Of a DNA stretch of 64,000 nucleotides, positions 2,818-30,901 are shown in pieces. A program made the translations under genes and the position numbers. The stretch is from Chloroflexota bacterium (lineage in GTDB: Bacteria > Chloroflexota > Anaerolineae > J102), in the NCBI GenBank assembly GCA_041918515.1, contig JAYRVO010000064.1, positions 23,050-87,049 on the forward strand, written 5' to 3'. Positions within the stretch are counted from its first letter, which is position 1, and each line of letters opens with the position of its first letter. The notes beneath the pieces are model-generated. The model saw only the letters and a program-made list of their open reading frames with translations, ran no database searches and was not told the origin of the DNA.

Positions 2818-3163
2818 ACATAGCAGCCAACCCATGCTCTCGCGCCGGGATTTTGTCAAGCGCCAGCTGCTATTCGCTGCGCTGGCAATTACCGTGCTCC
2901 TGCTGTCACTCGCGATCGGCATTGTAGGCTATCACATAACCGAAGGGCTGAACTGGACGGACTCACTGCTCAATGCCTCGATGATCCTCGGCGGCATGGG
3001 GCCGGTGAATGACCTCAAAACTGAGGTTGGCAAGATCTTCGCCTCGTTCTATGCCTTGTTTTCGGGCATCGTCTTCTTGTTGGTGATGGGCATTTTCCTG
3101 GCCCCCGCCCTCCATCGCCTGCTCCACCGTTTGCACTTCCCGATCGATGAGGAATCGTCGTGA
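2810..3163 (+). CDS. small integral membrane protein, hypothetical
   Basis: 117 aa with two strongly hydrophobic segments. Start overlaps the hisC stop. No recognisable catalytic motif. Confidence 0.45.
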
Positions 3164-3209
3164 TCTCATTTCCCGTCATCCTCACCCGCGCACTTGGTGG
3201 AGAACTTTG

Positions 3210-3446
3210 ATGCCAACAGTTCTTCAGGACGGACCCTATACCTTTCTGTTCTTCAGTTCTGACGCCGGTGAACCCCCGCATATTCATGTCAAGCGCGATC
3301 GGCAGATCGCCAAGTTTTGGCTCACTCCGGTTTTCCTTGCCAAGAATCGAGGTTTTCGGGAACACGAATTGAACGACATACTTCGCCTTGTCGTCAAGCA
3401 CCAATCCTTTTTATTGGAGGCATGGCATGATTACTTTAGTGCTTGA
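3210..3446 (+). CDS. DUF4160 family protein
   Basis: MPTVLQDGPYTFLFFSSDAGEPPHIHVKRD..AKFWLTPV..LLEAWHDYF matches the DUF4160 pattern. Confidence 0.6.
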   Translation: MPTVLQDGPYTFLFFSSDAGEPPHIHVKRDRQIAKFWLTPVFLAKNRGFREHELNDILRLVVKHQSFLLEAWHDYFSA

Positions 3447-3732
3447 AGCTGAACCGACGGCGCTTAATGTCATTGTCAGCAATGATAAACTGATCGTTGA
3501 TCTCGCGGATGGCCGTACATTGGCAATTCCGCTTGAATGGTACCCGCGATTGCACTATGCCACCACCCAAGAGCGCCACAATTGGCAGTTTTTGGGCGAT
3601 GGCTATGCCATCGAATGGCCTGATCTGGATGAGCATATTGGCATCGAAGGATTATTGGCCGGGCGTCATAGTGGCGAAAGTGAACAATCCTTGCAGCGTT
3701 GGCTGCAATCTCGTCCTATGAGCCGAAATTGA
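3427..3732 (+). CDS. DUF2442 family protein
   Basis: Usual partner of DUF4160, with ATGA overlap. About 100 aa from MITLVLEAEP. Confidence 0.55.
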   Translation: MITLVLEAEPTALNVIVSNDKLIVDLADGRTLAIPLEWYPRLHYATTQERHNWQFLGDGYAIEWPDLDEHIGIEGLLAGRHSGESEQSLQRWLQSRPMSRN

Positions 3733-3734
3733 TC

Positions 3735-3795
3735 ATGCCTACCCTCACCCGCGCCACCACCGAAACCCAACTCGCCCTCTCGCTCGATCCATGCA
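3735..3795 (+). pseudogene. remnant duplicate of hisB 5' end
   Basis: ATG CCT ACC CTC ACC CGC GCC ACC ACC GAA.. encodes MPTLTRATTETQLALSLD, versus genuine his[20 protein letters not shown] at 4148. Followed by a stop and the MNT cassette. Confidence 0.45.
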
Positions 3796-3822
3796 TCTTC
3801 CTCAATAATTGCGAGGTGAATC

Positions 3823-4113
3823 ATGACAACTTTTGAAGTACTACACAACAGACGCGATGAAATTCTCCAACTCGCTGCCAAACATGGCGCCGCAGATGTG
3901 CGTGTTTTCGGCTCGGTTGCACGCCATGAGGACTCGCCGGAAAGCGATATCGATTTCGTGGTGCGTACACAAGCTGAGACAAGCCGGTGGTTCCCTGCTG
4001 GCCTGATTGTCGAACTCGAAAACTTGCTTGGCCGGCGGGTCGAAGTAGTGATTGAACGGGCGATTAGTCCTTACATTCGTGACCGCATTCTCTCTGAATC
4101 ACTTCCTCTATGA
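3823..4113 (+). CDS. nucleotidyltransferase (MNT-type, Pol-beta superfamily), orphan antitoxin-like
   Basis: VFGSVARHEDSPESDIDFVV is the GS..(D/E)h(D/E)h NTase motif. No adjacent HEPN partner. Confidence 0.7.
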   Translation: MTTFEVLHNRRDEILQLAAKHGAADVRVFGSVARHEDSPESDIDFVVRTQAETSRWFPAGLIVELENLLGRRVEVVIERAISPYIRDRILSESLPL

Positions 4114-4147
4114 AAGATGATACTGGCGCGGCAGGAGATAAAACCTG

Positions 4148-4735
4148 ATGCCAATCACCCTCACTCGCACCACCCGTGAAACCGATATCACGCTCTCGCT
4201 CGACCTGCACGGCAGCGGCCGGGCGCAGATCAACACAGGCATCGGCTTCTTCGACCACATGCTCACGCTCTTTGCCAGCCACGGCCTCTTCGACCTGACG
4301 GTGGAGGCGAAGGGCGACCTGCACGTGGACGAGCATCACACGGTCGAGGATGTCGGCATCTGCCTGGGCAAGGCCATCAGCCAGGGCCTGGGCGACCGGG
4401 CGGGTATCGTCCGCACAGCCCACAGCTATGTGCCGATGGATGAGGCACTCGGCTTTGTGGCGGTGGATTTGTCTGGCCGCCCGTATTGCGTGTTCGAGGC
4501 CGCCTGGCACACGCCGCGCATTGGTGGCCTGGGCACAGATTTGATCCACCACTTTTTCGAATCGGTGGCCATCCACGCCGCCATGAACCTGCACGCCCGC
4601 GTCCTCTATGGCCGCAACGACCATCATCAATGCGAAGCCCTTTATAAAGCCTTCGCCCGCGCCCTCGACGCCGCCACCCGCCAGGACCCCCGCCGCGTCG
4701 GCGTTCCTTCCACCAAAGGCACGCTGATTGCGTAA
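4148..4735 (+). CDS. hisB: imidazoleglycerol-phosphate dehydratase
   Basis: 195 aa. HisB motifs ([43 protein letters not shown]). Confidence 0.9.
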
Positions 4736-4736
4736 A

Positions 4737-4815
4737 CTGGTTATTGGTAATTGGTTATTGGCGATTGACCGCCAATAACCAATTACCAATAACCAATAAC
4801 CAATAACCAATAACC
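4737..4815. repeat. CCAATAA-family heptamer hairpin (inverted ggttattgg / ccaataacc arms plus a tandem ccaataa run)
   Basis: Seen directly: ggttattggtaattggttattggcgattgaccgccaataaccaattaccaataaccaataaccaataacc, between hisB and hisH. Confidence 0.85.
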
Positions 4816-4818
4816 ACC

Positions 4819-5445
4819 ATGATCACCATCCTCGACTACAACATCGGCAACGTGCGCAGCGTGCAAAAGGCTGTCGAGCGGGCTGTGGCCGACGCCGGCA
4901 GCAGTCAGGCCGTGACGCTGACGGCCGATCCGCGCGCCATCCTTGACGCCGACGGCGTGATTCTGCCGGGCGTGGGCGCGTTCGGCGCTTGCATGACCAA
5001 CTTGCAGGCCGCTCACCTTTCGTCCATCGTGCGCGAGGTCGTGGTCGAAGGCATTCCCCTGCTGGGCATCTGCGTGGGCATGCAGATGCTGTTCGAGTTC
5101 AGCGAAGAGATGGGGGAATGGCGCGGCTTGGGTTTGCTGCCAGGCCGGGTGCGGCGCTTCGAGGGCGACCTGCGCGTGCCGCAGATCGGCTGGAATCAAC
5201 TTCACCCCACTCGGCCCGATCCTCTGCTCGATGGCATCGCCGATGGCGACTACGCCTACTTCGTGCATTCCTACTACTGCGACGCTTCCAACCCCGCCGA
5301 TGTGCTGGCGACGACCGACTACGGCCTGAGTTACCCTTCCGTCATCCAGCATGGCCGCATCTGGGGCATCCAATGCCACCCGGAAAAAAGCCAGCAGGTA
5401 GGGTTGCGGATTTTGCGAAATTTTGTTCATATTGTTGATCAGTAG
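4819..5445 (+). CDS. hisH: imidazole glycerol phosphate synthase glutamine amidotransferase subunit
   Basis: GICVGMQMLF (catalytic Cys), HSYY and CHPEKS motifs of class I GATase HisH. Confidence 0.9.
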   Translation: MITILDYNIGNVRSVQKAVERAVADAGSSQAVTLTADPRAILDADGVILPGVGAFGACMTNLQAAHLSSIVREVVVEGIPLLGICVGMQMLFEFSEEMGEWRGLGLLPGRVRRFEGDLRVPQIGWNQLHPTRPDPLLDGIADGDYAYFVHSYYCDASNPADVLATTDYGLSYPSVIQHGRIWGIQCHPEKSQQVGLRILRNFVHIVDQ

Positions 5446-5535
5446 ACAAGTAAATAAGGAAACAAGTAGACAAGGAAACAAGTGGATGTGCGCCCTTGTC
5501 TACTTGTCTACTTGTTTCCTTATCTACCCAAATTA
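5446..5535. repeat. inverted-repeat hairpin (gtagacaag...cttgtctac) after hisH
   Basis: tagacaagtaaataaggaaacaagtagacaagg, then its reverse complement ccttgtctacttgtctacttgtttccttat. Likely a terminator or structured element. Confidence 0.6.
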
Positions 5536-5554
5536 CTCAAAAGAGGTTTAAATC

Positions 5555-6121
5555 ATGCTACAAACCCAAACTCTCACATCTTCTCGTTGGACCACCCGCG
5601 CGGCGCTCATCGTTGGCTTCGCCCTGTTCACCGGGCTGGCGGCGCAGGTGCGCATCCCGCTACCGTTCACGCCAGTGCCGGTCACGTTGCAAGTGCTGGC
5701 CGTGATCCTGGCCGGATTGCTGCTTGGCCCGCGCGCTGGCTTCCTCAGCCAGTTGACCTATCTCGGCTTAATCGCGCTCGGCGCGCCGCTGGCCGCGGGC
5801 TGGATCGGCGGCCCGACCGCTTTCGTCGGCCCCACAGCCGGCTACCTCATCAGCTTTCCGGTGGCGGCGGCAGTGGTAGGCTGGCTGGCCGGGGATGGAA
5901 AGGCGCGCGGGCGCAGCTTTTTGGCCGGGCTGGCGGGCGTGGCCGTTATCTACCTGGTGGGCGCGACCTGGCTGGCTTTGGTGCTCGGTCTCTCGCTGCA
6001 ACAGGCATTTCAACTTGGCGTGGCGCCGTTCATCCTGGTCGATGTGGCCAAAGCTCTGATCGCCGTGCTGGTCGGGCGTAGTGGCGCGGCCCTGTTGCAC
6101 AATCTCCAATCGCGAGCGTGA
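5555..6121 (+). CDS. bioY: BioY family biotin transporter (ECF S-component)
   Basis: VPVTLQ..AGLLLGP..GAPLAAGWIGGPTAFVGPTAGYLISFP is the BioY signature. Multi-TM protein. Confidence 0.8.
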   Translation: MLQTQTLTSSRWTTRAALIVGFALFTGLAAQVRIPLPFTPVPVTLQVLAVILAGLLLGPRAGFLSQLTYLGLIALGAPLAAGWIGGPTAFVGPTAGYLISFPVAAAVVGWLAGDGKARGRSFLAGLAGVAVIYLVGATWLALVLGLSLQQAFQLGVAPFILVDVAKALIAVLVGRSGAALLHNLQSRA

Positions 6122-6887
6122 AGACCCATTGAGCGGCGAACTCTCGGTGCTGTTGACCCAAATCGACGCCAAGCGCGGCCTGCTCGACCAACGCCGGCCC
6201 CTGAACGCGGGCGAAGCGGCGCGACTGCGCGAGTACATCGACGTAGAATGGACGTATCACACGAACAGCATCGAGGGTTCGACGCTCACCCGCCAAGAGA
6301 CGATGGTCGTGCTCAAGCATGGCGTCACGGTCGGCGGCAAAACCCTGGTCGAGCACCTGGAAGCGACGAATCACAAGCATGCCATCGACTACGTGATGCA
6401 ATTGGCGACGCGCGGCGCCCCACCCACCGAAGCCGACATCCTCACCTTGCACAGCCTGGTGTTGCGCGGCATCGACGACGAGAATGCGGGCGTTTATCGC
6501 CGCCGGCAGGCTTTCATCGCTGGTTCGGAATACACCCCGCCCCCGCCGCGGGCTGTGCCCGGACGCATGGCCGAATTCGGCCAATGGCTGGAGAGGACGC
6601 ACACAGCCGAACCTCGTCTGCATCCGGTCGAACGAGCCGCCCACGCTCATTTCTGGCTGATGGATATCCATCCCTTCATCGATGGCAATGGCCGCGTGGC
6701 GCGCTTGTTGATGAACCTGCTGCTCTTGCAAAGCGGCTATCCCATCGCCATCATCCGCAGCGAAGACCGCCTGGCCTACTATGCCGCTCTCGATGCCGGC
6801 CACGCCGGCCATCTGGATGACTTCCTACTGCTCGTGGCCGCCGCCGTCGATCGCACAGCCGACCTCCACCTCTCCGCCACCGATTGA
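6081..6887 (+). CDS. Fic family protein (AMPylation/Fido domain)
   Basis: HPFIDGNGRVARLLMNLLL is the canonical Fic motif. The true start is probably an internal TTG/GTG near 6129-6147, because the ATG at 6081 overlaps bioY by 41 nt. Confidence 0.75.
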   Translation: MARPCCTISNREREDPLSGELSVLLTQIDAKRGLLDQRRPLNAGEAARLREYIDVEWTYHTNSIEGSTLTRQETMVVLKHGVTVGGKTLVEHLEATNHKHAIDYVMQLATRGAPPTEADILTLHSLVLRGIDDENAGVYRRRQAFIAGSEYTPPPPRAVPGRMAEFGQWLERTHTAEPRLHPVERAAHAHFWLMDIHPFIDGNGRVARLLMNLLLLQSGYPIAIIRSEDRLAYYAALDAGHAGHLDDFLLLVAAAVDRTADLHLSATD

Positions 6888-18555: not shown

Positions 18556-18981
18556 TTAGCCAGTCTTCCAAGCTTCGCTTAGGAAGCCACGTGGGGTGAC
18601 AATAGCAACGCCACGGAATGGATTGAGCCGAAGCAAATCACTATCTCCACTCACAATGCACTTTGCATTCCCACTGACCGCAAGCTCGATAAACTTATCG
18701 TCGCTAGGGTGACGGCAAGCTCGGATACGTTCGGCCGCTTCGATGAGTTTGGTTTCCCGCAGTAGCACAGCCAGGAATTCAAGTCGTTCCTCTTCACTTA
18801 CATACCTGGCAAAACCAGGACGCCCCAGCACTTCATTCAGCTCAGAGAGAGTCTCCACAGAAACGAGCAGATCACCATCGGCGATTGCTTTATCGAAAGC
18901 TTGACGTGGCAGCGAATGCTTCAATAAAGCTGCACCAACAACCGCATTCGTATCGAACACGAAACGTGGTCTAACGCTCAC
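18556..18981 (-). CDS. PIN domain toxin (type II TA system)
   Basis: RFVFDTNAVV..(acidic residues)..CIVSGDSDLL layout of PIN nucleases. 141 aa. Confidence 0.7.
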   Translation of the reverse strand: MSVRPRFVFDTNAVVGAALLKHSLPRQAFDKAIADGDLLVSVETLSELNEVLGRPGFARYVSEEERLEFLAVLLRETKLIEAAERIRACRHPSDDKFIELAVSGNAKCIVSGDSDLLRLNPFRGVAIVTPRGFLSEAWKTG

Positions 18982-19198
18982 GTAGCAACTCTTCGAGTTT
19001 TTCTTCAGTCAATCCACGTTCCATTGCTTTGTCACTCATTTCATCCATGATGTTGGCTAAAGAACTAGAACGAGTCGCGTATTCACGTAGCCAAAGATTC
19101 ATCAGCATCTGTAGTTTTGATTTGGTCTCTTTCGATGCCGAACGATAGGCTTGTGCTAATTCGGAATCGACTTGCAGTGTGACAGTGGCAAGCGCCAT
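18971..19198 (-). CDS. antitoxin (cognate to PIN toxin), start uncertain (19198-19246)
   Basis: Small ORF overlapping the PIN start by 11 nt (MALATVTLQVDSELAQAY...EEKLEELLRER). Confidence 0.5.
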   Translation of the reverse strand: MALATVTLQVDSELAQAYRSASKETKSKLQMLMNLWLREYATRSSSLANIMDEMSDKAMERGLTEEKLEELLRER

Positions 19199-19317
19199 TT
19201 CGTTTCGCTCCTGTAATCCATTTGAGGAACTCATCATGCTGTTCACATTATAGCACCCTCATCCTGGTCTCCTCAATTCCTCGCCCCTTCGCCCCCTCAA
19301 CTCCCTCGCCTCACCCC

Positions 19318-21568: not shown

Positions 21569-21847
21569 ATGGCCACTGACACGATTCAGATGCGCGCCAA
21601 GGGCAGCATCACCATTCCAATTGAATATCGAAAGAAATATGCGCTCGAGGAAGGTGATGTGTTTACACTCGTAGATCTCGGAGATGGAAGCTTCGTAATC
21701 GTGCCGCGCGTATCATTACTGCCGAAACTAGTGGCTGAACTCGAAGCCATTCGCGAGGAAGCCGGCGTCACGGTCGAGGATCTATTGGCTGATGTTCCCA
21801 AATACCGCCAACAGATCTACGAGGAACGCTATCGTGGGCGGTTCTGA
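21569..21847 (+). CDS. AbrB/MazE/SpoVT-type antitoxin
   Basis: IQMRAKGSITIPIEYRKKYALEEGDVFTL swapped-hairpin pattern. AGGAGG ribosome-binding site. Confidence 0.6.
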   Translation: MATDTIQMRAKGSITIPIEYRKKYALEEGDVFTLVDLGDGSFVIVPRVSLLPKLVAELEAIREEAGVTVEDLLADVPKYRQQIYEERYRGRF

Positions 21848-22295
21848 AACGAACGCGCCGCGTATCTTCTTTGACACTTCTGTCGTGTTGGCCTGCGCGT
21901 TTTCAAAGAGGGGTGCCAGCTATGTTCTAATCGAGCTGGCAAACCTCACGCTGATCGAAGGGCGTATTTCGCCTGACGTGCGTGAGGAGGTGTTGCGCAA
22001 TGCTCCTTCGAAGATGCCTGCGGCTATGCCTGCCTTGCGCTCGATCCTTTCCGAATATCTGATCGAAGGTCCGGCGCCATCGGCTGAAATGCTGATCACG
22101 ATGCGCGGCTATGCTGACGTCAAAGATGTCCCCATCCTGGCGGCAGCGATCGAGCAGAGGTGTCGGTACCTGGTGACGCTGAACGAGCGCGATTTTTGGC
22201 CGCCCTCAACTTTGATCACAATTGTGCGCCCGGGCGATCTGCTCTCGGCTATTCGGAAGCAGGTTGGTACGTTGATCATGGGAAATGATTTGTAG
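21834..22295 (+). CDS. PIN domain toxin
   Basis: GTG start overlapping the antitoxin stop. [19 protein letters not shown] acidic residues. Confidence 0.6.
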
Positions 22296-22302
22296 GTTTG
22301 CC

Positions 22303-22388
22303 CTACCTTCACCGCCTGAGCGAACTGGCTGGGATCAAAGTCGATTATGTGTCCGTAGGGCCGGAGCGGGAGCAGATGTTTGCGGTTT
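22303..22388 (+). repeat. copy of purA 3' end (..[24 protein letters not shown]-stop)
   Basis: About 90% identical to 21421-21508 at nucleotide level, including the stop codon. Confidence 0.85.
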
Positions 22389-22496
22389 GACGCCCCGCCT
22401 CTGGCCGCATCCCTGTTTGATTGGATATCGACGGGGTGGCATAATAGGGGCCAGAATTTATTCCTAATTCGAGGGCCAGCTCAGGAGGCCATGCTC

Positions 22497-22730
22497 ATGG
22501 AACGGGTTAAGGTCAGTCTAACGCCCCCGCTAAACGAATTTCTTAGCCGCCACGCATTCTACGGCTTCTCGGATAAGAGCGCGATGGCCCGCGCCGCTTT
22601 GTCTCGCCTGAAAGAAGAGATTGAGTTGCAGCTTCTGCAGCAATCCGCCGATCTGTATGCTGAGGAGTATGAAGATGATCGGGAATTGCAGGAATTGACG
22701 AAAGCGGCGCTGGCAGGATGGCCAGAATGA
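22497..22730 (+). CDS. RHH/CopG-like antitoxin (MazE-type partner)
   Basis: MERVKVSLTPPLNEFL... AGGAGG 8 nt upstream. ATGA overlap with mazF. Confidence 0.5.
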   Translation: MERVKVSLTPPLNEFLSRHAFYGFSDKSAMARAALSRLKEEIELQLLQQSADLYAEEYEDDRELQELTKAALAGWPE

Positions 22731-23083
22731 GCGCCCTGCGACGGGGGATGGTGGTCGAGGTCGATCTCGATCCGACGCTTGGTTCGGAGACAGGGAAGAC
22801 GCGGCCATGCGTGATCGTGACGAACGATGTCTACAACGAACGCGTGCCTGTGATTCAGGTTGTTCCGATCACGGCCTGGAGCGAGAACAAGGGCCGGATC
22901 AGGACGAACGTCGAGCTATTCCCCAGTTCTGATAACGGCTTGACGAAACGGTCGGTGGCCGATTGTCTGCAAACTCGTCCGGTCGATCATCGCTTGCGAT
23001 TGGTCGCCATTCTGGGTGAGCTAACAAAAACAGAAATGGGGCAGATCGATGAGGCACTAAAAGTCATATTTGCGCTAAAATGA
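22727..23083 (+). CDS. mazF: MazF/PemK family endoribonuclease toxin
   Basis: [30 protein letters not shown] is the MazF/PemK signature. Confidence 0.75.
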
Positions 23084-28492: not shown

Positions 28493-29275
28493 ATGACCTT
28501 ACAACCTGATACGACTCGCACTCCGACGCCGCCCCGACGCCATCTGCTGCGCTGGACCCTCCTGGCAGCACTTGTCATCCTCCTTGTCGCCATCAGCGGC
28601 TTTCTCGTCTGGGCCATGACCCCGCTTGGCCCCGCGCCCGCGGCCCTGGCCGCTCTGCAATCTGACGCCCAAGTGACCGTCGAGCAAAACGACTGGCTGG
28701 TCTTCAAGCCAAGTACGACCTCGCCCACGACCGGCCTCGTCTTCTACCCCGGCGGTCGCGTCGACTACCGCTCCTATGCTCCCCAGATGCATGACATTGC
28801 GGCCCAAGGTTATCTGGTCATCATCGCGCCCATGCCCCTCAGCCTGGCAGTCTTCGCTCCTGGCCAAGCCGCCGACATCATCGCCGCCCATCCTGAGATC
28901 GAACATTGGGCCATTGCGGGCCATTCGTTGGGCGGCGCCATGGCGGCCAACTTCATCTACACTCACCCTCAAGCTGCTGAAGGCCTGGCTCTATGGGCGG
29001 CCTACCCTGCCGACAACAACAGCTTGGCCAGCCACATCCTGCCCGTCACCTCCATCTACGGCACGAACGACGGCGCCGCCGCAACCCTGGCAGCCTCCCG
29101 CACGCTTTTGCCGCCCCAAACCCGCTGGATAGTTATCACTGGCGGCAACCACGCCCAATTCGGCAGCTATGGCGCCCAGCCCGGCGACGGAGTAGCGGCC
29201 ATCTCCGCCGAGGAACAACGCCGCCAAACAGTGGGCGCCACCGTCGAACTGCTGGCCAGTATCAGCGCCCAATAG
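28493..29275 (+). CDS. alpha/beta hydrolase, membrane-anchored
   Basis: N-terminal TM helix. GHSLGG nucleophile elbow. Conserved His near the C-terminus. Confidence 0.7.
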   Translation: MTLQPDTTRTPTPPRRHLLRWTLLAALVILLVAISGFLVWAMTPLGPAPAALAALQSDAQVTVEQNDWLVFKPSTTSPTTGLVFYPGGRVDYRSYAPQMHDIAAQGYLVIIAPMPLSLAVFAPGQAADIIAAHPEIEHWAIAGHSLGGAMAANFIYTHPQAAEGLALWAAYPADNNSLASHILPVTSIYGTNDGAAATLAASRTLLPPQTRWIVITGGNHAQFGSYGAQPGDGVAAISAEEQRRQTVGATVELLASISAQ

Positions 29276-29373
29276 ACCAAACCCCACGGCCATGACCGCT
29301 GCTCTTCGGCCACGAAGAACAGCGCCGGAAGCGACCCTCGCCACCTGCATGACCAACACTCCCCCTCGCTGCC

Positions 29374-29847
29374 ATGTACGAAACTCTCACCGCCCCTGAC
29401 TTCACCCTCCAAACCTCCGACGGACAAACCTTTCGGCTCTCCGCCCAACAGGGCCAGCAACACACCGTTCTCGTCTTCAATCGCGGCTTCACCTGACCGC
29501 ACTGCCGTCGGCATATGGCGCAGTTGCGTCAAGACTATACGAAATTTACGAGTAAACACGCCGAGATCGTCGTTGTGGGGCCAGAAGACAGGCGAACCTT
29601 CACGTATGTCTGGAACAAAGAACGCTACCCCTTTGTCGGACTGCCCGATCCTACTCACACCGTCGCCGACCTCTACGGACAACAAGTCAAGCTCCTCAAA
29701 TTCGGGCGCATGCCCTCCCTCGTGGTCATCGACAAACGCGGACAAATCCGCTATCGGCACTATGCCGACTCGATGAGCGACATCCCTCCCAACGACGAAA
29801 TCCTGGCCGTACTGGATGAACTCAACCGGGCGGATGATCCTACATAA
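29374..29847 (+). CDS. peroxiredoxin/redoxin-like selenoprotein candidate (in-frame TGA at 29494-29496 read as Sec)
   Basis: MYETLTAPDFTLQTSDGQTFRLS..VLVFNRGFT-[TGA]-PHCRRHMAQL.. then the 29515 ORF continues in frame. The TGA sits exactly where Prx/Trx-fold proteins carry the catalytic Cys (U-P-H-C = UxxC). A hairpin, gcactgccgtcggcatatggcgcagttgc, starts 3 nt after the TGA. Confidence 0.55.
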
Positions 29848-29866
29848 GCCACAACGCACTGCTCAA

Positions 29867-30901
29867 ATGACCCCACAACCTGGCCTCGTACTCCTCTTCG
29901 GCTCTGGCGAGACCGCCCACAGCGGGCACAAAACCTGGGATTGGCTTCTCCGTCGCCTCCCCCCCTCGCCCAATCTGGCCATCCTCGAAACTCCCGCCGG
30001 CTTCCAGCCCAACTCCGCCCTGGTCGCTGGCGAGATCGCCGCCTTCCTGGAACACCACCTGCGCAACTACGCCCCGCGCGCCACCGTCATCCCCGCCCGC
30101 AGGCGCGCCACCCCCTTCAGCCCCGATGACCCCGCCATCGTCGCGCCACTGTGTCTCGCCGACGCCATCTTTCTCGGCCCCGGCAGCCCCACCTATGCCG
30201 TGCGCCAACTACGCGACAGCCTGGCCTGGCGCTTCCTTGTAGCCCGCCATCGGTTGGGCGCACCCATCGTGTTCGCCAGCGCCGCCGCCCTTGCCGCCAG
30301 CACCCACACCCTCCCCGTCTACGAAATTTACAAGGCGGGAGAAGAACTGCATTGGCAGCCGGGCCTTGATTTCTTGCAACCATTTGGCCTCGACCTTACC
30401 TTCATCCCGCACTGGAACAACCAGGAAGGCGGCGCCAACTTGGACACCAGCCGCTGCTTCATGGGTCAGGAGCGCTTTGCCGCCCTCCAAGCCCTTCTTC
30501 CCACCGACGCCATCATCGTCGGCATCGACGAACACACCGCCTTGATCCTCGATCTGGCTGCGGAGGAGGCCAGGGTGCAGGGGCGAGGCGCCGTCACCCT
30601 GGTGAGAGGCTGCCAGACAACCATCTATCCCAGCGGCGCCCGCTTTCCTCTGCGCAGATTGGGTGACTATCAGGCCGTGCGCTTGCCCGACCTCAGCGAG
30701 AATCTACCCTTCGATCTCCGGCCCTCGCCTTCGACGCCATCCCCTCCCCCGCCCGATGTGCTTGCGCTCGTCGAAGCGCGCGAAAGCGCACGCCAGCAGA
30801 GCGACTGGGCGCGCGCCGACGCTCTGCGCAGCCAGGTGCAGGCGCGCGGTTGGCACATCCGTGACACCGCCGCGGGGCCTGCACTCAGCCCGGTCGTTTA
30901 G
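29867..30901 (+). CDS. hypothetical protein; C-terminus resembles the CysRS C-terminal helical module
   Basis: LVEARESARQQSDWARADALRSQVQARGWHIRDTAAGP resembles ..ARK.KDWA.AD.IRD.L...G..LEDT..G. The N-terminal domain is unassigned. Confidence 0.4.
   Translation: MTPQPGLVLLFGSGETAHSGHKTWDWLLRRLPPSPNLAILETPAGFQPNSALVAGEIAAFLEHHLRNYAPRATVIPARRRATPFSPDDPAIVAPLCLADAIFLGPGSPTYAVRQLRDSLAWRFLVARHRLGAPIVFASAAALAASTHTLPVYEIYKAGEELHWQPGLDFLQPFGLDLTFIPHWNNQEGGANLDTSRCFMGQERFAALQALLPTDAIIVGIDEHTALILDLAAEEARVQGRGAVTLVRGCQTTIYPSGARFPLRRLGDYQAVRLPDLSENLPFDLRPSPSTPSPPPPDVLALVEARESARQQSDWARADALRSQVQARGWHIRDTAAGPALSPVV

Follow-up and report, generated by a model that had tools for sequence, protein, structure and literature searches.

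A predicted selenoprotein with a peroxiredoxin fold in Chloroflexota and the RNA hairpin behind its in-frame UGA

A stop codon in the place of a catalytic cysteine may mark a broken gene, a shortened gene or a site at which selenocysteine (Sec, U) is inserted. This question is raised by a peroxiredoxin (Prx)-like gene in a stretch of 64,000 nucleotides from a Chloroflexota bacterium of the Anaerolineae (contig JAYRVO010000064.1 of GenBank assembly GCA_041918515.1, positions 23,050 to 87,049 of the forward strand), which is referred to here as the window. The gene contains an in-frame TGA at the first position of a cysteine-type redox motif, and an earlier reading made from the letters alone (the sequence-only reading) had offered it as a selenoprotein candidate, with a pseudogene or a protein starting after the TGA as alternatives. 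Our analysis supports the candidate through a TGA kept in 36 of 36 orthologous loci, coding sequence on both of its flanks, homologues with cysteine at the site and a covarying hairpin downstream. On these grounds the UGA very probably encodes Sec in a single gene of 157 residues.

Reading frame and conservation of the UGA

The frame was re-read from its ATG and follows the course that the sequence-only reading had drawn. A run of 40 sense codons (MYETLTAPDF...VLVFNRGFT) leads to the TGA, past which the frame stays open (PHCRRHMAQLRQ...; PHCRRHMAQL...) as far as a TAA, with no additional stops or frameshifts within the gene (coordinates are collected in Table 1). The shorter open reading frame (ORF) that had been listed for this locus is the stretch from the first ATG 3' of the TGA. 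The position of the upstream start is typical of the family, as orthologues begin 3-10 residues ahead of a conserved APDF motif and the window protein does likewise. With cysteine substituted at the TGA, the 157-residue product matches the Pfam AhpC-TSA profile over positions 4-123 of 124 (E 6.6e-24; 84.7 bits, cut-off 26) and the Redoxin profile with E 2.1e-21, which bears out the Prx/AhpC-TSA-like body seen earlier. The 40-residue and 110-residue halves, searched separately, match adjoining parts of these same profiles, and the TGA therefore interrupts one domain and is not a boundary between two genes. A long antisense ORF overlaps the gene, and because the conservation by codon position fits the forward frame it is regarded as a shadow of the sense gene.

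To follow the UGA through the family, one genome per bacterial species was scanned with peptide patterns, none of which could select TGA and one of which (CPHCRRHM) favoured Cys forms. The scan returned 36 orthologous loci (L001-L036) with 43-73 % identity to the window protein, the closest relatives in it being metagenome-assembled genomes (MAGs) of Caldilineales at 73 %. Chloroflexota account for 31 of the loci (Caldilineales, Anaerolineae, Dehalococcoidia, Thermomicrobia and others labelled to phylum only), and the remaining five come from the cultured Desulfovibrio sp. 7SRBS1 (L031), from two further MAGs of Desulfobacterota/Thermodesulfobacteriota and from one MAG each of Gemmatimonadota and Actinomycetes. 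The homologous codon is a stop in every one of the 36, TGA each time, and forms part of the motif RGF-x-U-P-[FHY]-C-R. In pairwise comparison, codon positions 1, 2 and 3 have nucleotide identities of 0.65, 0.75 and 0.38 over the 34 codons upstream of the TGA and of 0.63, 0.72 and 0.38 over the gene downstream of it; in the 5' flank of the gene the values are 0.25, 0.25 and 0.25, which is random. This pattern of substitution indicates that the segment ahead of the UGA is coding and in frame.

Cysteine is found at the Sec position in the homologues P0002, P0006, P0010, P0016 and P0053, and its codon is TGT in all three Cys forms whose DNA was read. The second residue of the motif pair, Cys44, is kept in 36 of 37 sequences and is encoded by TGC in all 36 of those. 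Elsewhere in the window TGA behaves as an ordinary stop. It is the commonest terminator, ending 17 of the 29 Pfam-supported genes, and many orthologues of the selenoprotein gene themselves end in TGA; the code is therefore not reassigned and the recoding would be specific to this site. A heuristic scan of the window for further TGA-interrupted genes gave the selenoprotein gene as its sole credible case, the other results being same-frame adjacent genes or antisense shadows.

A conserved hairpin within the coding sequence

Bacterial Sec codons are expected to be followed by a selenocysteine insertion sequence (SECIS), and an RNA alignment of 37 sequences was examined from 9 nt upstream of the UGA to 57 nt downstream. 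The RNAalifold consensus consists of one hairpin of 6 bp with an AGUU loop; in the window it is the loop that starts 25 nt past the UGA. Across the alignment 97.7 % of the hairpin cells are paired. Three of the pairs show compensatory changes, with exchanges among G-C, G-U and A-U and between C-G and U-A; in one orthologue (L014) the stem reads GAUGC/GCAUC by way of Ala-to-Met and Arg-to-His substitutions. None of 500 shuffles reached the observed covariation score, and pairing dropped to 17-66 % in a control in which the partner columns were slid.

The strongest evidence for the predicted RNA element is found in the silent sites. Codon choice at conserved residues elsewhere in the gene is near saturation (1.6-2.0 bits at four-fold and ~1 bit at two-fold codons), whereas at the hairpin it is frozen: Ala49 is GCG in 32/32, Gln50 is CAG in 36/36, Leu51 is TTG in 35/36 and Arg52 is CGY in 34/35. 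Third-position identity accordingly climbs from 0.38 to 0.83 over the hairpin codons. The two most divergent orthologues carry other hairpins at a similar place, GCGCGC-AGUUG-GCGCGC at 16 nt from the UGA (L027) and CAUCUG-GGU-CAGAUG at 21 nt (L032), both of which qualify under the bacterial SECIS model. That model calls for a loop of 3-9 nt with G in one of its first two positions followed by G or U, a stem of 4-16 bp, a distance of 16-37 nt from the UGA and an energy of -7.5 kcal/mol or below (PMC13188914). The window hairpin lies within every one of these limits with its 6 bp, AGUU loop, 25 nt and -8.1 kcal/mol, and most orthologues reach -10.8 kcal/mol.

The Cys forms offer a further comparison. 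The hairpin is lost in two of the three, one of which has TTA and CGG codons in its place (L041) and the other a different peptide (L043/L044). In the third (L042:1354-1836, protein P0010), a TGT form, the hairpin is still intact; given its loss in the other two, this suggests a recent conversion from Sec to Cys.

In a separate relative, on a metagenome contig of the JGI (L048:1890-2100, protein P0041), the Sec codon is replaced by CGA (Arg) and the N-terminal part is shifted in frame by one base. The hairpin ATGGCGCAGTTGCGCC is nevertheless intact. This relative may be a copy in decay, or the damage may reflect a read error. The window gene is unlike this example of a damaged copy of the same gene.

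The sequence-only reading had proposed a different SECIS element, an imperfect stem (GCACUGC.../...GCAGUUGC) beginning 3 nt past the UGA. That stem belongs to the minimum free energy (MFE) fold of the window sequence (-16.4 kcal/mol), a fold no better than those of shuffled sequence (z = -0.75, with 38 of 200 shuffles equally stable or more so). Across the alignment the stem shows 84.9 % pairing and no compensatory changes, and half of the sequences break two of its seven pairs. In the comparison with the bacterial consensus that had been proposed, it is the downstream hairpin that agrees with the model; the stem originally drawn stays at the level of chance. We take the hairpin of Table 1, and not this stem, as the predicted SECIS element.

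Compared with the fdhF/fdnG-type SECIS elements of Escherichia coli and the bSECISearch consensus, the hairpin is alike in lying inside the coding sequence directly 3' of the UGA, in its small apical loop with G then U and in a distance from UGA to loop that falls within the range of 16-37 nt. It is much shorter than the fdhF element (~40 nt), lacks the bulged U and has neither a lower stem conserved across the family nor a matching Rfam model. The CUGCC stretch that follows the UGA, outside the consensus hairpin, is near-invariant among L001-L036, and the Cys44 codon within the family is never TGT. This constraint could be a matter of UGA context, or of a lower SECIS stem beyond the resolution of the alignment.

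The mechanism that we propose is that the UGA is decoded as Sec owing to this G+C-rich, AGUU-looped hairpin in the mRNA. By analogy with characterised bacterial SECIS elements, the hairpin would recruit SelB, the elongation factor specific for Sec, with Sec-tRNA(Sec) to the ribosome, and selenium would be incorporated by that route.

Redox centre, fold and family relationships

The fold was examined through an AlphaFold model of P0002, a Cys homologue 62 % identical to the window protein. The model is of high confidence (pLDDT, the predicted local distance difference test, 90.9; predicted template-modelling score, pTM, 0.88) and places the CxxC where the first long helix (46-57) begins, after the central strand 34-39. 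Its closest solved structures are BCP/AhpE peroxiredoxins, with template-modelling (TM) scores of 0.84-0.92 and root-mean-square deviations of 1.6-2.1 A. In sequence alignment, the CPHC of Bacillus ResA falls residue for residue on U41-P-H-C44, so that the TGA does stand, as had been claimed for it, in place of the first Cys of a CxxC/UxxC motif; the Cys homologues agree with this. No signal peptide, membrane anchor, hydrophobic segment or N-terminal extension was found in the window protein, which starts 6 residues before the first conserved strand. Together these features point to a cytoplasmic protein with a Prx fold and a thioredoxin-type UxxC centre.

Such a protein could work as follows. 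Sec41 would stand at the head of the first helix, as part of a U-P-H-C motif that corresponds to the CxxC in thioredoxin-like oxidoreductases, and its selenolate would attack an oxidised substrate, which may be a disulfide or, as a further possibility, a peroxide or a sulfenic acid. Cys44 would then resolve the intermediate by forming an intramolecular selenenylsulfide, and a thioredoxin-type reductant would regenerate the enzyme.

It is possible, if doubtful, that the protein is instead a genuine peroxidase and belongs with the Sec-peroxiredoxins of BCP/PrxQ type, Sec41 or Cys44 being peroxidatic. The fold is nearest to BCP/AhpE peroxiredoxins, as described above, and in the full-length alignment with archaeal BCP peroxiredoxins a gap of one residue brings their peroxidatic Cys opposite Cys44. 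In addition, an invariant arginine (R112, in GRMP) lies near the usual place of the catalytic Arg of Prx, and source records name some of the fragments 'peroxiredoxin Q/BCP'. The redox centre argues otherwise. The canonical signature PxxxTxxC(U) is lost in N36-R-G-F-x-U-P-H-C, where Asn36 stands for Pro and an extra residue alters the spacing, and the residue ahead of Sec varies among orthologues (T/M/L/F/I/A/S/W). The UxxC motif is that of thioredoxin-like oxidoreductases, whereas known Sec-peroxiredoxins have TxxU (PMC13188914 Table 1). A search of NCBIfam gave no model at its cut-off for the window protein, and the peroxidase models fall far under theirs (BCP 32 bits, cut-off 140; PrxQ 23 bits, cut-off 260), as do ResA (34 bits, cut-off 170) and DsbE (20 bits, cut-off 359).

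The solved relatives illustrate this mixed character. BCP/PrxQ and AhpE proteins (3drn, 3hjp, 2ywn, 1xvw) share the fold and size of the window protein and are detectable by sequence (E 1e-7 to 1e-4), but at 25-27 % identity, and the window protein does not conserve their PxxxTxxC, having as its redox centre a UxxC pair at the start of the helix. With ResA/TlpA (3c71) the CPHC and its flanks align exactly (gtwCPHCkk in ResA, gftUPHCrr in the window). Those proteins are membrane-anchored and extracytoplasmic, whereas the window protein has neither signal nor anchor, and its C-terminal half is closer to BCP than to ResA.

Prx-like UxxC selenoproteins were reportedly first predicted by Kryukov and Gladyshev and by Zhang and Gladyshev. 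A Prx-like thiol:disulfide oxidoreductase (PF00578; UxxC or UxxU) is listed among the high-confidence predicted families of prokaryotic selenoproteins (PMC13188914 Table 1), and the Global Ocean Sampling (GOS) survey counts its Prx-like 1 family as 225 Sec against 2,740 Cys sequences (PMC2398784 Table 2). The window protein scores above threshold with PF00578, has Sec first in UxxC and is homologous to these proteins from Sec to Sec. Alignment with Prx-like selenoproteins, which the sequence-only reading had recommended, gave BLASTP matches of E 1e-9 and 3e-7 with Sec on Sec, at only 27-33 % identity to the published marine members that were compared. In those members the context is near-identical, ...FFRGFWUPHCRKQL... 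and ...FYRGHWUPYCRRQL... beside ...VFNRGFTUPHCRRHMAQL... in the window, and the motif RG[FH]WUP[FHY]CR corresponds to RGFxUP[FHY]CR in the relatives of the window gene. Both groups have a SECIS hairpin directly downstream inside the coding sequence, and both have Cys homologues. Judged by these features, the window gene belongs to the known, predicted Prx-like thiol:disulfide oxidoreductase or Prx-like 1 family, within which it forms part of a distinct, mostly Chloroflexota clade.

The defining feature of this clade is the hairpin-bearing peptide MAQLRQDY, which is absent from the portion of the GOS supplement that was searched. Its members come mostly from Chloroflexota and not from Deltaproteobacteria or marine plankton. 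The clade is also dominated by Sec, with ~112 Sec against 5 Cys among the 120 closest protein clusters, whereas the GOS Prx-like 1 sequences are mostly Cys. The best NCBIfam match of the window protein is the SelL-related redox protein NF040769 (E 2.2e-18), which covers the N-terminal 100 residues including the redox motif; at 66.5 bits it is below the cut-off of 120 and takes in profile positions 2-98 of 173. A few homologues also bear the related PF13911 domain. SelL proper has a UxxU motif. The GOS paper terms SelL Prx-like and reports UxxU sequences only in Prx-like 2 (PMC2398784).

A bolder reading, which we consider unlikely, makes more of this distinctness. The Sec-dominated clade would carry a minimal 6-bp AGUU SECIS welded to the peptide M-A-Q-L-R, near-identical in nucleotides in Chloroflexota, Desulfobacterota, Gemmatimonadota and Actinomycetota, and either the gene and its signal would have spread by horizontal transfer or a tiny SECIS would be recognised by widely divergent SelB proteins. 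As a more speculative extension, the conserved AUG at the hairpin base could allow an internal start when selenium is scarce, giving a 110-residue C-terminal fragment and a selenium-dependent switch between two products.

Database records, other readings of the UGA and genomic surroundings

The interrupted frame has left a clear mark on the databases. Of the 120 nearest clusters in the protein database, 102-104 hold a fragment that opens with MAQLRQDY, its start being the ATG past the TGA; another 10 hold a full-length protein in which W occupies the Sec position, while Cys is found there in 5 and Arg in 1. P0001, a protein of 110 aa, is 100 % identical to the window ORF and starts at the same Met, and in a PGAP-annotated MAG record (MBX7235253.1) the fragment is named only "redoxin domain-containing protein", a bare name for which the lack of any NCBIfam model at cut-off may be the reason. 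The W entries are P0012 (L045:386-997), P0003, P0005, P0007-P0009, P0013, P0015, P0018 and P0019. In L045 the site codon is TGA, and the true TGA terminator is also translated as W, which makes the product ~50 residues longer; the W entries are therefore regarded as an artefact of genetic code 4.

These W records are one reason to consider that the UGA is read without selenium, through near-cognate insertion of Trp or Cys or a genome-wide sense code for TGA, and it is established that downstream structures can stimulate read-through in general. The Sec machinery was also not found in the window or the loci. We nonetheless hold this explanation to be highly unlikely, as the ten W entries arise from the translation table, TGA is the terminator of most of the Pfam-supported window genes and a Trp in place of the catalytic Cys would abolish redox activity. 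The hairpin, moreover, is a specific match to the SECIS model, its small apical loop containing GU and lying at the expected distance, and Chloroflexota are documented users of Sec (PMC1794560, PMC5389517, PMC13326102).

There is only a very slight chance that the gene is split or shortened, with the 110-aa ORF alone expressed from MAQL and the upstream 40 codons acting as an untranslated leader or encoding a small peptide of their own. The ATG 6 codons past the TGA, which encodes Met in 26 of 37 sequences, and the prevailing annotation of the family agree with such a start, which the sequence-only reading had allowed for. It is contradicted by the upstream codons, which share the codon-position pattern of the body where the true 5' flank is random, and by the span of the domain, since the upstream part occupies AhpC-TSA profile positions 4-37 and supplies the first beta strands and the active site. 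Without this part the fold would be incomplete and the redox centre gone. Full-length Cys forms occur as single ORFs, and the conserved ATG doubles as the base of the hairpin.

A nonsense mutation that turned the catalytic Cys codon of a redoxin gene from TGY into TGA would leave a pseudogene with a lone in-frame stop, which the present gene resembles; gene callers in effect assume this (P0001), and the decayed relative L048 might seem a precedent. The probability of a pseudogene is nonetheless negligible, because an identical TGA in 36 of 36 orthologues from several phyla, with saturated silent sites and a conserved protein on both sides, is impossible for independent or inherited inactivation, and the gene is free of the additional damage that makes the truly decayed L048 look different.

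The decoding of the UGA as Sec must itself be set against a number of observations that weigh against it. The window hairpin is weak at -8.1 kcal/mol, contains one G-U pair and competes with the MFE fold of -16.4 kcal/mol, and about 10 % of UGA triplets in this window of 62 % G+C precede some SECIS-qualifying hairpin. Given this chance rate and an MFE no better than that of shuffles, the argument from a hairpin in a single sequence carries little weight, and it is the comparative data that give the hairpin its significance, and they do so for the hairpin of Table 1. Most hairpin columns hardly vary, so that the covariation depends on few sequences (L014, L020, L033/L034), and part of the nucleotide conservation is derived from the protein because the hairpin overlaps the conserved peptide MAQLR. 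An Rfam scan of the window returned no matching family. There is no tRNA gene in the 64-kb window and no tRNA-Sec in the 36 orthologous loci, and tblastn with E. coli SelA, SelB and SelD found no selA, selB or selD in the 663 kb that the window and all loci make up together. None of the neighbouring genes recurs consistently among the 36 loci, and gene context consequently provides no clue to the substrate.

The Sec machinery is normally encoded at sites unlinked to selenoprotein genes, and its absence from the window and ~600 kb of flanks is uninformative for that reason. The Pfam inventory of 30 window genes likewise contains no Sec genes but solely housekeeping functions, and PurL is its sole protein of AIR-synthase type. 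At the level of the phylum, the Sec trait and selenoproteins are documented in Chloroflexi (PMC1794560 Table 2), an unusual tRNA-Sec is known there (PMC5389517) and Dehalococcoidia genomes contain up to 49 selenoprotein genes (PMC13326102 Table 2). A tRNA-Sec of the 8/4 form has been reported for Chloroflexi.

The only tblastn match was of E. coli SelB to L029:1429-2277 on the reverse strand, with 31 % identity over the GTPase domain and beside a tRNA-Thr/tRNA-Tyr/tRNA-Thr group. This gene is probably tuf, encoding EF-Tu, and not SelB.

The window as a whole is ordinary chromosome, with hisD/C/A/F/E, guaB, purL/Q/A, an oligopeptide ABC transporter, SMC, glmS, PhoD, a sulfatase and other genes. 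The selenoprotein gene lies 98 nt downstream of an Abhydrolase_5 gene and is followed directly by a gene for a protein of 344-361 residues. The sole Pfam match of the latter is a C-terminal CysS_C domain (cysteinyl-tRNA-ligase anticodon-binding-like; E 7.6e-8), its N-terminal 300 residues have no Pfam match, and the gene is not found beside the selenoprotein gene in the other loci. The neighbours counted over the 36 loci include SDR in 13, Abhydrolase_1 in 9 and Abhydrolase_5 in 8, the window among these. Two further observations concern other parts of the window. Three pairs of small ORFs, located between purL/purQ and after purA, look like toxin-antitoxin modules, and the start of one member resembles MazF/PemK. 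Between hisC and hisA lies a stretch in which the G+C signal by codon position is weak and ORFs begin in an odd, repetitive way (LVIGYWLLVIGYW...). A Fic/DOC gene follows, and the stretch may have been inserted into the his operon.

Table 1. Positions in the window of the selenoprotein gene, its parts and other features named in the text
Feature	Position	Strand	Description
Complete coding sequence of the predicted selenoprotein	29374..29847	+	157 codons including Sec41, then TAA 29845-29847; single frame, one AhpC-TSA/Redoxin domain across the TGA
In-frame TGA, predicted to be read as selenocysteine U41	29494..29496	+	Opens the U-P-H-C redox motif; 37/37 sequences have TGA at the corresponding codon
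Cys44 codon TGC	29503..29505	+	Putative resolving partner of Sec41 (selenenylsulfide)
110-aa ORF (MAQLRQ...) of gene callers	29515..29847	+	Annotation artefact; C-terminal 70 % of the protein without the active site; ATG overlaps the hairpin base
SECIS-type hairpin within the coding sequence	29516..29531	+	5' arm UGGCGC 29516-29521, loop AGUU 29522-29525, 3' arm GCGUCA 29526-29531
Stem proposed in the sequence-only reading	29499..29527	+	Equals shuffles; no covariation
Antisense ORF	29167..29859	-	Overlaps the selenoprotein gene
Abhydrolase_5 gene	28493..29275		Upstream neighbour
Gene with C-terminal CysS_C domain	29816..30901	+	Downstream neighbour; probable start near 29868
Small ORF pair	18556..19246	-	
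Small ORF pair	21569..22295	+	
Small ORF pair	22380..23083	+	Start of 22718-23083 resembles MazF/PemK
Stretch between hisC and hisA	3015..6887		Weak codon-position G+C signal
Fic/DOC gene	6081..6887		Follows the part with weak G+C signal

The general biology is unchanged by this locus, since Prx-like UxxC selenoproteins have been known computationally since 2004-2008. Its value lies in annotation and in the signal itself. More than 100 database clusters of the family appear to be mis-annotated, either as "peroxiredoxin/redoxin" fragments of 105-124 residues without the active site or as full-length proteins with a spurious Trp. The hairpin provides a clean example of a minimal bacterial SECIS, in which covariation, frozen silent sites and decay in Cys forms converge on the same 16 nucleotides, and would be of use in the refinement of SECIS models. 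Correct annotation of the gene would add one more selenoprotein for many Chloroflexota and would flag their genomes as users of Sec.

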